DNA of 64,000 nucleotides from Promethearchaeota archaeon Loki_b31 (lineage in GTDB: Archaea; Asgardarchaeota; Lokiarchaeia; Sigyniarchaeales; SOKP01). This document shows, in pieces, positions 35,981 to 39,149 of this stretch (position 1 is its first letter; every line of letters starts with the position of its first letter). The notes beneath the pieces were generated by a model. That model was not told the origin of the DNA. It worked only from the letters and a program-made list of their open reading frames with translations, and did not search any database. The translations under genes were made by a program, and so were the position numbers. Location of the stretch: contig NJBI01000005.1 in the NCBI GenBank assembly GCA_005222975.1, forward strand, positions 63,447-127,446, given 5' to 3'.

Positions 35981-36155
35981 CCAATTTGATCTAAATTTTT
36001 TTATATAATTTCTAGGTTTAATATGTTAGAACAAACTTTTTTATTACATTAAATATCCATAAAATATAAATCGAAAATCTACAAGACTATTTAAGAATAA
36101 AAGTTCAATTGATTTAATGAAATCTTAAAATAATGAATTATTAGAGATATATACT

Positions 36156-37415
36156 TTGAATATCAATGGAAAACAATTTGAAGAAGGTTATATTTCAAAA
36201 ATAATTGAGCTATTAAACCATAATATTATAGGTAAGACCTCTGCTAGAGCAGTTTCTTTACATATGGGTCTGAATCGTAATTATCTCTCTGATAAACAAC
36301 TAAGAGAAGGAAAATATGAGCAATATAATAAATTTTTTGCTTTAGCTACTAATTTTCTTTTACTTAATCGGTTTGATTTAAATTTTAGGTCTGATACCCA
36401 TTATAAGAAGTTCATAGCTGAAACTATAGAAATTATTTTTCAGGAAATGGTCAGAAAAGGTATCTACTCTGAAGATGAGGTTTTAACTATTCAAAAGACA
36501 CAATTTAAAGCTTTAATATATACACTTTATGCAATTACTAAAGCTAAGACAAACAAATATTCACAGATTAGACTTGATGAATTAAAATCTGGGAAAACAA
36601 AAAAGTTCTTATACACATGGAATAAGCTTAGTTATGACATCGGGGGAGTAGAGACACTTTCTCAAACTCTTAAACATGAGACGGTTGTCGCACCTGAAAA
36701 AATTGCTCTAATCAAATCAATCTTAGAGAATTCTACACCATTTGCTTTTGAAGAATGCACGCATGCTATGGATCTAATCGAAGAGATCCCAAGATTAAGA
36801 TATAGCGATCGCGCTTCATATATAGGGTCAGTATCTCACTCAGTTTTGGAAAATTTCTTCAGAGAAATGTGGTTAAATATAAATATTCTCTCTCGACATG
36901 AAGTTGAATCTAATAAACCTAGAAGTAATCATAGAATAGATAGTTTATTAGAGATTAAAACGCAAATACAGTTAAAAGACTTATTAGAAATTTCCTTAAA
37001 CATTGATCTGGGAAATTATGAGAAAATGTTCATTGATTATACTATACCATCATTAATCTCTTTAAAACAATTAGGAGGTGTCCTAAGCAAATTAAGTCCA
37101 GATAAGCATTATCTTGCACATGATCGCTTACTGATTATTGTTTTCTATGGATATTATAATAATAAAGTTTTCGAAGCCCTTCAAGATCTACTTAATGATT
37201 TAAATATTCCTTTTAAAAGTAATATTCGATTTATGGATCTCATTGATTTTGCTAAATTGTTTAATTTTAATGCAGAGAATATTCAGATGTTAGAGCATAT
37301 CAATCAGATAATTCAAAAAGCCTTTTTGGGGAACGATGAAGCGTTAAATACTCTAGAAGAACTGTCTAATTCTGCTTTATATAAGCTAAGAAAAGCTGAT
37401 AAAAGAAAGAGTTGA
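36156..37415 (+). CDS. Hypothetical protein, possible PD-(D/E)XK-like nuclease domain in C-terminal half
   Basis: 419 aa; G..SH..LE helix, HE, RID, IDYT spacing resembles restriction-endonuclease folds; weak. Confidence 0.45.
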   Translation: MNINGKQFEEGYISKIIELLNHNIIGKTSARAVSLHMGLNRNYLSDKQLREGKYEQYNKFFALATNFLLLNRFDLNFRSDTHYKKFIAETIEIIFQEMVRKGIYSEDEVLTIQKTQFKALIYTLYAITKAKTNKYSQIRLDELKSGKTKKFLYTWNKLSYDIGGVETLSQTLKHETVVAPEKIALIKSILENSTPFAFEECTHAMDLIEEIPRLRYSDRASYIGSVSHSVLENFFREMWLNINILSRHEVESNKPRSNHRIDSLLEIKTQIQLKDLLEISLNIDLGNYEKMFIDYTIPSLISLKQLGGVLSKLSPDKHYLAHDRLLIIVFYGYYNNKVFEALQDLLNDLNIPFKSNIRFMDLIDFAKLFNFNAENIQMLEHINQIIQKAFLGNDEALNTLEELSNSALYKLRKADKRKS

Positions 37416-37542
37416 TAATTACCAAAAAAGTTTTATATCAGAATTAATTTTTTCTTTCTTTAAGCATTTATTAGAACTAAATATTTAAGTGATAAAGGCT
37501 TTTTGATGTGATAAGGAATAAAGAATTATAAATTTAGCCAGC

Positions 37543-37653
37543 GCCAGCGTATAAAACTTATCATTCAAGATGAGTTTGCGCAACCGAGTAGTAAGGAGGC
37601 GGCCTGCAGAGCCGTTGCTTTCAGCATCATGGGTGCAAATCCCATCGCTGGCT
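37543..37653 (+). tRNA. tRNA-Cys (GCA) with a 31-nt intron at position 10/11 and a 13-nt variable arm
   Basis: After removing 37553-37583: acceptor GCCAGCG/CGCTGGC, T8 A9, D stem TCCG/AGGA, anticodon arm GCGGC-CTGCAGA-GCCGT (GCA 37606-37608), T arm ATGGG-TGCAAAT-CCCAT, discriminator U73; CCA not encoded; directly upstream of cysS. Confidence 0.9.
37553..37583 (+). other. Archaeal tRNA intron with relaxed bulge-helix-bulge (HBh') motif
   Basis: Central helix GCGT(37547-50)/GCGC(37578-81), bulges AT^A and AA^C, internal hairpin AAACTTATC/GATGAGTTT. Confidence 0.82.
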
Positions 37654-37706
37654 CTTATATTCCTCATATCACTAATAATGCGCTCATTTAAGGTGTATAA
37701 AATATC

Positions 37707-39149
37707 GTGAAAGTTTATAATAGCTTAACATTTAAAAAGGAAGAATTTAAGCCAATCGAACCCGGAAAAGTCAAAATGTACGTTTGCGGAGTTACCGTAT
37801 ATGGAAGTCCACATCTAGGCCACGCAAAGTCCGCAGTCGCTTTTGATTTAATTCACAGATATTTAAAATTTAAGGGCTATAAAGTTAATATAGTTAAAAA
37901 TTATACTGATATTGACGATAAAATAATTAAGAGTTCTAAAGAAAGAAACATTGATTTCAGGACTTTAAGCAATCAATATATCGCTGAATATGAGGAAATC
38001 ATGGAAATGCTCAATGTCGAGCATAATACACGAAATCCACGCGCAACCGAAGTAATAGATTTTATAATTAATTTTATTAAAGAATTGATTTCTAAGGGAC
38101 ACGCTTACGAGAAAAATGGATCCGTGTACTTTTCAGTTAAATCATTTCCGGGATATAGTTCCATTCTTCAAAAAAGTAAAGATGAAGGAAAGGAAAGCGA
38201 AGAAGAAGATTACACTGTGGATCAAGATACTGCATTTGGAGAAGATAAGTTAGATAGTCGAGATTTTGCGTTGTGGAAAAAAATGAAAGAAGGAGAGCCT
38301 TTTTGGGAAAGCCCTTGGGGTGAAGGGCGTCCTGGATGGCACATTGAATGTTCTGCTATGATCTTGAACTTTTTAGGAGAAACAATTGACATACACGGGG
38401 GCGGTCAAGACTTGAAATTTCCACACCACAGGAACGAAATCGCGCAATCAGAGTCTTATACTGGTAAAAAAATTGCGAATTATTTCCTTCATAACGGTTA
38501 TGTTAATGTAAAAGATGAAAAGATGTCTAAAAGTCTAGGAAATTTTTTTATAGTAGCAGATATTGCCAAGCAGTACGACCCAATGATTATTCGTTGGTAT
38601 CTGATATCGAGTCATTATCGAAGTTCAAATAATTATACTATTGAAAGCATGGAGCAAGCTAAAAATATTTACAACAGATTAATAAACACGATTAAAAAAG
38701 TGAACGATACTGAATTTGCTGAAGCGAAATCAAAGCAACTTAACGACTTAATTGCAAAAATCGAAAATGCAGAAAATAAAATTATTGACGCTATGGAAGA
38801 TGATTTTGACACACCTGTAGCTTTGGCAGAGTTGTTGACGCTGTTTAGAGAGATTAACAAAGCTATACTACAAGATGGCTTGAAAATAAACCAAGAATTT
38901 AAGAATCGATTTTTCGAATTTATAGAATTCAATGAAAAGATTTTCGGAATTTTTCCATCTTTAAACGCTAAAATGACACCTTTCTCGTTTGAAAGCATGG
39001 ATGAGAAAGATAAACTCATTAAAAGCCTCGTTAATTTAATAATTGAAATGCGCACTAAATTAAGAGATAAAAAAATCTACGATTTAAGCGATGTAATACG
39101 CGAACGGTTAAGAGAATTAGGTATCGATATCGAAGATAAAAAGACATAA
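37707..39149 (+). CDS. cysS: Cysteine--tRNA ligase
   Basis: YVCGVTVY, HLGH, DFALWK, GRPGWHIECSAM, DIHGGG, KMSKS. Confidence 0.96.
   Translation: MKVYNSLTFKKEEFKPIEPGKVKMYVCGVTVYGSPHLGHAKSAVAFDLIHRYLKFKGYKVNIVKNYTDIDDKIIKSSKERNIDFRTLSNQYIAEYEEIMEMLNVEHNTRNPRATEVIDFIINFIKELISKGHAYEKNGSVYFSVKSFPGYSSILQKSKDEGKESEEEDYTVDQDTAFGEDKLDSRDFALWKKMKEGEPFWESPWGEGRPGWHIECSAMILNFLGETIDIHGGGQDLKFPHHRNEIAQSESYTGKKIANYFLHNGYVNVKDEKMSKSLGNFFIVADIAKQYDPMIIRWYLISSHYRSSNNYTIESMEQAKNIYNRLINTIKKVNDTEFAEAKSKQLNDLIAKIENAENKIIDAMEDDFDTPVALAELLTLFREINKAILQDGLKINQEFKNRFFEFIEFNEKIFGIFPSLNAKMTPFSFESMDEKDKLIKSLVNLIIEMRTKLRDKKIYDLSDVIRERLRELGIDIEDKKT

Follow-up and report, generated by a model that had tools for sequence, protein, structure and literature searches.

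Introns at non-canonical positions of archaeal tRNA genes, which carry relaxed splice motifs and depend on an (alpha-beta)2 or epsilon2 form of the splicing endonuclease EndA for removal, are textbook knowledge (PMC4090602, PMC4033280, PMC5829648). In Thermoproteales, a tRNA intron at position 3/4 has been described (Sugahara 2008, as cited in PMC4090602), and in the split tRNAs of Nanoarchaeum equitans the leaders pair to build the splice motif (PMC4033280). Asgard archaea possess an (alpha-beta)2 EndA with an L1 loop (PMC5829648), and D-arm introns that are missed by tRNAscan-SE have been described in this group by a recent preprint, the main text of which focuses on the families Freyrarchaeaceae, Jordiarchaeaceae and Atabeyarchaeaceae (Goswami et al. 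2026, 10.64898/2026.10.13.758758). Hidden Asgard D-arm introns have thus already been reported, so the class to which the intron described below belongs is not new. According to the same main text, no route of intron arrival was found and mobile elements were scored by hallmark domains; the words Cys, leader and Lokiarch are absent from it (10.64898/2026.10.13.758758). The literature that we searched contains no measurement of the substrate range of an Asgard EndA, which the main text of the 2026 preprint describes as still to be measured.

Here, we report such an intron in the tRNA-Cys gene of Promethearchaeota archaeon Loki_b31, within a 64,000-nt stretch of contig NJBI01000005.1 that was analyzed as a whole (hereafter, the window; all coordinates refer to it, and all features of the tRNA-Cys locus lie on its forward strand unless stated). 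A first-pass annotation of this DNA had proposed that an endonuclease-type intron at tRNA position 10/11 hides a tRNA-Cys gene and that excising exactly 37553-37583 restores it. Exon 1 (GCCAGCGTAT, 37543-37552) corresponds to tRNA positions 1-10, comprising the acceptor strand (1-7), U8, A9 and U10, and matches the first 10 nt of intron-less orthologues exactly. It is followed by an intron of 31 nt (37553-37583) and by an exon 2 of 70 nt (37584-37653), which covers tRNA positions 11-73 including the T arm and features the anticodon GCA (37606-37608), a paired variable arm of 13 nt (37616-37628), the T loop TGCAAAT and the discriminator U at 37653. The 3' acceptor strand of exon 2, CGCTGGC, is the complement of bases 1-7. 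The cysteinyl-tRNA synthetase gene cysS (37707-39149; Pfam tRNA-synt_1e, E 1.4e-122) lies 53 nt downstream.

Rather than from the splice motif, the exon junction was set from intron-less orthologues. Removal of 37553-37583 yields an 80-nt tRNA-Cys (GCA, U73) that is 100% identical to the intron-less gene of genome G005 (L002), in which GCCAGCGTAT is followed directly by CCGAG with no insert. Moving the boundaries by one base in either direction failed to reproduce the orthologue sequence, which indicates that the junction is unique and that the intron separates tRNA positions 10 and 11. The L002 sequence scores 54.7 bits against the Rfam tRNA model and is called tRNA-Cys(gca) by ARAGORN, which also calls the in-silico spliced window gene a tRNA-Cys; the spliced product folds on its own into a cloverleaf. 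The insert is absent in orthologues L002, L005, L007, L008, L010, L011, L024, L025 and others, and exon 2 matches were found in 83/135 genomes of the genus and family, with exactly one match in each matching genome. From these comparisons, we conclude that the locus is a real tRNA-Cys gene with a real intron of a known kind in an unusual place, as the first-pass annotation had claimed down to the excised interval. Its remark that 10/11 is not a commonly reported site also agrees with the site list in PMC4090602, from which 10/11 is absent.

Several features of the gene and its surroundings vary or stand apart. Some relatives replace the variable-arm stem at 37616-37628 with compensatory stems (GCU/AGC, GCC/GGU, GUC/GAC and GGC/GCC), and others carry an ordinary 5-nt loop in its place. 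The T loop UGCAAAU has G at position 55, and the D loop has AG instead of the usual GG. An ORF of 60 aa runs antisense over the gene (37485-37667, reverse strand) and is almost certainly spurious. At a GC content of 31%, TATA-like strings are too common to mark a promoter.

Standard annotation does not reveal this gene, as had been anticipated in the first pass. ARAGORN found no tRNA in the whole window and, when run on the whole genome with its intron options, missed the tRNA-Cys gene. The Rfam tRNA model recognized only 37574-37653 in the window, at 30.3 bits and with a poor acceptor stem. That score lies just over the cut-off of 29, and if the Rfam alignment were taken at face value the tRNA would start at 37574 and be intron-free, which would make the upstream GCCAGCG a coincidence. 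However, a tRNA with this start would contain a U-U mismatch and two G.U pairs in its acceptor stem, would have C as base 8 and would lack the 10-25 pair, and the orthologues place GCCAGCGTAT right before CCGAG in a sequence that reaches 54.7 bits; we therefore give this reading almost no credence. The stretch that Rfam takes as the acceptor strand is the 3' end of the intron, GTTTGCGCAA (37574-37583), which mimics a tRNA 5' end. It resembles exon 1 (GCGCAA vs GCGTAT), a likeness that could follow of necessity from the palindromic GCGC or could be left over from a duplicated exon.

The locus appears to hold the only tRNA-Cys of the genome. We removed all 742,581 candidate motifs genome-wide in silico and ran the products through ARAGORN, which recovered this locus as the only tRNA-Cys; the same scan revealed introns of this type, each about 30 nt long, in genes that ARAGORN assigned to tRNA-Trp, Arg, Met, Lys and His. 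A pattern scan for a GCA anticodon arm followed by a T arm returned a single instance, the window gene. Thus, two independent scans detected no second intact tRNA-Cys in the assembly, which is 92% complete with 6% contamination. That completeness leaves room for a working gene in the unassembled part of the genome, with the locus described here as a pseudogene disabled by an insertion, and the absence of an ARAGORN call would fit such a pseudogene. Against it, exon 2 is 100% identical to working orthologues, the insert carries a splice motif that is conserved and compensated in several genera, each of the 83 matching relatives has exactly one match (83/83) and the assembly offers no second GCA anticodon arm, so that we assign the pseudogene a very small chance. 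We consider it highly likely, on these sequence comparisons, that the locus is a functional and probably the sole tRNA-Cys(GCA) gene, with a 31-nt intron at 10/11 that is removed by the archaeal splicing endonuclease. Cysteine decoding in this organism thus appears to depend on the removal of an intron that is invisible to standard annotation, which suggests that the tRNA sets of Asgard archaea are under-called.

We also examined the predicted splice motif. A helix of four base pairs, termed H, joins the end of exon 1 to the 3' end of the intron (G47-C81, C48-G80, G49-C79 and U50.G78, which are 37547-37550 with 37578-37581). The two cut sites lie in stretches of 3 nt each, A51 U52|A53 and A82 A83|C84, and the intron forms a hairpin of nine pairs between 37554-37562 and 37569-37577 with its loop at 37563-37568. 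The intron therefore consists of one nucleotide of the 5' bulge, the hairpin, the GCGC (37578-37581) that pairs with tRNA bases 5-8, and, at its 3' end, the AA that belongs to the joint. The first-pass description of a 4-bp helix, 3-nt bulges and a 9-bp hairpin holds for every one of these elements except that no outer helix closes the 3' "bulge", which instead links helix H to the D-stem as a short joint; bases 1-4 cannot pair past C11. The lack of an outer helix at the 3' site makes the motif HBh' rather than strict hBHBh', in agreement with the relaxed HBh' motif that the annotation had named.

Such a structure rarely arises by chance. When the exons were held fixed and the intron was shuffled 300,000 times, helix H together with at least four hairpin pairs was obtained in 98/300,000 shuffles, and H with nine pairs in 1/300,000. 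The 10/11 intron family is also present in G136, of the same genus, and in G051, G065, G064 and G071, of other genera. Across five distinct sequences, the 13 pairs of the motif are standard in 65/65 cells, compared with 20-51% for controls in which the partners were slid. The closing pair of the hairpin is C-G, A-U or U-A across the five sequences, which amounts to one doubly compensated pair, and in three pairs just one partner varies, among them the fourth pair of H, which is U.G here and U-A in G065 and G071.

The 2026 preprint allows, in its main text, that some D-arm insertions may not be introns (10.64898/2026.10.13.758758), and the 31 nt could accordingly be kept as an additional arm of the mature tRNA. 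However, the insert interrupts both the 8-14 core and pair 10-25 of the D-stem, close relatives lack it, and the features conserved in it belong to a splice motif; a retained arm is in our judgment very improbable, and we retain the reading of a spliced intron. Two other structures were considered and rejected. In a mirrored bulge-helix-bulge, the 5' end of the intron would pair with exon 2, but by inspection A54-C57 cannot pair with C85-G88. A group I or group II intron has a ribozyme core of hundreds of bases, compared with an insert of 31 nt. Rfam returned no other family match in the region.

Introns of the same architecture occupy different sites in relatives. In G147, the tRNA-Cys gene has a perfect motif with an intron at 9/10, and its predicted A10 pairs with a changed U25 (by inspection). 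The tRNA-Cys genes of other relatives contain different introns, sited either at about 15/16 or within the anticodon or T loop, with a common architecture of one base, a hairpin of about 9 bp, four bases complementary to the exon before the 5' bulge, and two bases. The variety of sites among relatives suggests that this lineage gains and loses such introns freely. As separate observations, the tRNA-Cys of G051 (L078, G051:C216:3274-3707) combines the 10/11 intron and the leader copy described below with another intron, about 30 nt long, in its T loop, and the tRNA-Cys of G067 (L061, G067:C259:10885-11347) has a leader copy, the spacer CCTTT and a 33-nt insert near 8-11. For this insert in G067, no clean motif was found at any of three equivalent junctions, and the 3' cut would fall four bases, not two, past the GCGC helix.

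The genome encodes the enzymes that such splicing would call for. Two EndA paralogues of about 200 aa each are present, alpha in the ORF at L021:1453-2055 and beta in that at L022:1435-2040. The alpha paralogue aligns with the catalytic alpha subunit of A. pernix along its length (E 2.8e-34), with the Tyr, His and Lys residues kept, and it retains the Lys-Pro-Arg ("KPR") of the broad-specificity loop in this alignment. In the beta paralogue, the catalytic His is replaced by Asp. The pair fits the published (alpha-beta)2 EndA with an L1 loop of Asgard archaea (PMC5829648). RtcB is also encoded (562 bits), as is the RNase P RNA. Together, the orthologues, the conserved introns, the sole GCA tRNA and the two-subunit EndA bear out the proposal that an endonuclease-type intron at 10/11 hides the tRNA-Cys.

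The position of the intron close to the 5' end creates a conflict, which the first-pass annotation of the intron did not mention, just as it did not mention the larger DNA block, described below, with which the intron came in. Helix H takes tRNA bases 5-8, of which bases 5-7 also belong to the acceptor stem, and its upper strand (G5 C6 G7 U8, 37547-37550) consists of the same bases that the acceptor stem requires. Because H is built from acceptor bases, the splice fold and the tRNA fold are mutually exclusive unless the 3' acceptor strand is held otherwise. When the precursor was folded without its leader, the acceptor stem formed and H was lost. Directly before G1, the leader contains a copy of the acceptor 5' strand, GCCAGC (37537-37542), which with A37536 (37536-37542 in total) and G1 forms an 8-nt complement of 37646-37653 and could make eight pairs with it. 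When the leader was included, the minimum-energy fold in five lineages placed the copy on the 3' strand with H and the hairpin both formed, and was 1.8 to 6.2 kcal/mol more stable than the leader-free fold. Among tRNA-Cys genes with a visible 5' end, the copy is present in 8/8 with an intron at 9/10 or 10/11 (G000, which is the window genome, G136, G051, G064, G065, G071, G067 and G147, with spacers of 0, 3 or 5 nt) vs 0/~70 others, which are intron-less or have introns elsewhere; since the genomes are related, the eight genes reflect perhaps three independent events. These comparisons and predicted folds indicate that the leader copy probably makes the near-end intron spliceable, and they suggest a stand-in strand, which would also hold on to the very short exon 1 for as long as H is paired.

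Based on the features of the sequence, the comparisons and the enzyme genes, we infer the following RNA steps, including the cut sites and the order of processing. The precursor would retain a 5' leader that ends in the repeat of the acceptor 5' strand, and this copy would pair with the 3' acceptor strand, so that the tRNA body stays folded and the 10-nt exon 1 remains tethered. G5-U8 would thereby be free to pair with the GCGC near the 3' end of the intron and form the 4-bp helix H, which, beside the 3-nt bulge A9 U10|A and the 9-bp intron hairpin, would complete the HBh' motif. An (alpha-beta)2 EndA with a broad-specificity alpha loop would cut after U10 and after the last intron A, and RtcB would ligate U10 to C11. 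The true 5' strand could then displace the leader copy, after which RNase P would trim the leader and the CysRS encoded next to the gene would charge the tRNA. If so, the leader copy implies a forced order of processing in which splicing precedes RNase P.

A parallel case exists in a tRNA-Ile(GAU) gene of the same genome (G000:C92:594-711, reverse strand; L099/L093), which has a 30-nt intron at 7/8 with H formed by bases 2-5. Upstream of this gene lies GGGGAAG, a copy of the acceptor strand GGGAGAG. Within the genus, a copy accompanies 8/8 tRNA-Ile genes with an intron at 6/7 or 7/8 vs 0/11 intron-less orthologues, a count that, given the relatedness of the genomes, stands for a few independent events, so that the tRNA-Cys and tRNA-Ile copies together represent a handful of events and not 16. 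An alternative explanation is that the copy has no role in splicing, that EndA cuts without it, and that it was left behind as a scar when duplication or recombination assembled the surrounding block. In one tRNA-Ile subgroup the leader repeats bases 1-13, beyond the acceptor strand, and looks like a duplication remnant; the 3' end of the tRNA-Cys intron, as noted above, resembles exon 1; and the copy always travels with the block. Against a scar, the copy is kept across lineages that differ in their introns, in their spacers (0, 3 and 5 nt) and in their flanks, and the fold shifts as predicted in five lineages. Moreover, the tRNA-Ile copies vary only among purines opposite U67-U69, which indicates that pairing has been kept (in 7/8, with one copy excepted). 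We consider the scar unlikely, although it deserves more weight than the other alternatives raised so far, and we favor the stand-in strand. Recurrent copies of this kind suggest a simple RNA solution, a stand-in strand, for a competition between folds.

Together with exon 1, the intron belongs to a 1.5-kb block (36053-37583) in which an ORF, a putative promoter region and the leader copy precede them; the closest relatives lack this block. The flanks are 92-95% identical to G005, G021 and G017, with an AsnC-type regulator on the left and exon 2 and cysS on the right. No counterpart of 36053-37577 exists in these three genomes. In place of the block, G005 and G021 have about 94 nt of a different promoter and their own first ten bases, and the corresponding stretch in G017 is about 190 nt long. 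The left edge of the block is identical in G136 and in G051, which is of another genus (82% nucleotide identity), and by eye this edge shows no terminal repeats or displaced tRNA fragment. In G136 (L083, G136:C124:527-1035), the block is present with 36219-37314, which is most of the ORF, deleted, and the DNA to its left differs from that of the window. The ORF also precedes the tRNA-Cys with a 10/11 intron in G065. The ORF products of G000 and G051 share 76% identity and their CysRS proteins only 60%, which points to transfer of the block. ORF and intron are thus present or absent as one block between close relatives and are shared with distant ones. The block structure provides a dated snapshot of intron gain: genomes with flanks 92-95% identical lack the intron, which is tied to a nuclease-like gene.

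The ORF is intact (36156-37415, 419 aa) and belongs to no Pfam family. Its structural model (pLDDT 77) has a C-terminal alpha/beta domain, at about residues 214-372, that weakly resembles PD-(D/E)xK nucleases, the class to which every one of its best matches, themselves weak, belongs. With Foldseek, the best match was EcoO109I, again weak (E 0.026), and with VIA residues 214-372 gave weak Z scores of 5.1-5.9 to Can2 (5.9), EcoO109I (5.5), McrC (5.4) and BsaWI. Its neighbors in a protein language model were PD-(D/E)xK families at 0.85-0.88, with PDDEXK_3, Mrr and MunI at 0.87-0.88. More distant homologues (24-44% identity; G081, G055, G143, G114 and G057) have no nearby Rfam tRNA match, which neither supports nor refutes the idea that the block is a cassette. 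The tRNA-Ile gene also has an ORF directly upstream, of 489 aa (P0022, L099:858-2160, reverse strand), that is shared only with the intron-bearing alleles of G007 and G015. It has no Pfam match, and its nearest neighbors by language model and by structure are treble-clef zinc finger, DUF723 and DUF559 proteins, mostly viral, at 0.92-0.94. No relation between the 419-aa and 489-aa ORFs could be detected by BLASTP (E 0.015) or hhalign (probability 3.7%).

In collaborative homing, as in cyanophage psbA, a free-standing homing endonuclease gene lies beside an intron that protects its own allele. By analogy, we propose that the tRNA-Cys block may be a cassette that spreads like such a free-standing endonuclease with a protective intron. 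More broadly, the near-terminal mini-introns of Asgard archaea might ride on selfish cassettes, in each of which a free-standing putative nuclease gene and a promoter come with a placeholder leader, a short exon 1 and the intron. Such cassettes would spread by replacing the resident 5' end in the manner of collaborative homing, with the leader copy as an adaptation that keeps the intron spliceable. We offer this generalization tentatively, as a possibility that falls well short of being probable. The intron-bearing block bears on the question of how archaeal tRNA introns arrive, which recent work left open, and the cassette, if real, would represent a concrete arrival route for the tRNA introns of Asgard archaea that the 2026 census did not identify.

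Among described systems, the HBh' introns of Methanopyrus kandleri, in the D-loop of tRNA-Glu at 20b/21, and of Thermoproteales resemble the window intron in that they are short (PMC5829648, PMC4090602). The shared features are a 4-bp helix in which exon bases pair with the 3' end of the intron, one 3-nt bulge closed on both sides with the other site open, and a two-subunit EndA with a specificity loop. The window intron differs in that it interrupts the 5' strand of the D-stem at 10/11 and that its H is formed by acceptor bases 5-8. Like the hidden D-arm introns of other Asgard archaea (Goswami et al. 2026, 10.64898/2026.10.13.758758; Valentin-Alvarado 2024, PMC11291895), the intron is missed by standard finders, and as in the accounts given there it was found through compact relatives, has a relaxed motif and was gained recently. 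Unlike those of the 2026 census, as its main text presents them, it sits on a block with an ORF that lacks a hallmark domain; Pfam recognizes none in either the tRNA-Cys or the tRNA-Ile ORF.

The Thermoproteales intron at 3/4, as far as the citing source describes it, lies likewise so near the 5' end that acceptor bases must join the splice motif. As in the split tRNAs of N. equitans, flanking sequence that is not part of the tRNA would supply pairing for the endonuclease substrate, but in N. equitans two leaders pair in trans and cleavage at the motif removes them (PMC4033280), whereas the leader described here would act in cis, replace one acceptor strand and be removed later by RNase P. We found no description of such a stand-in leader in the literature searched, although absence there is not proof of absence. 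The likeness to collaborative homing consists of a nuclease-like ORF beside the interrupted gene, the inheritance of ORF, exon 1 and intron as a block, and a patchy distribution across genera. Unlike in cyanophage psbA, the intron is an EndA-type mini-intron and not group I, and the resemblance of the ORF to a nuclease fold is weak. Taken together, the tRNA-Cys intron itself belongs to a known kind, and the features that would extend beyond it are the leader that stands in for an acceptor strand and the cassette that carries it, for both of which the comparisons among related genomes provide support.
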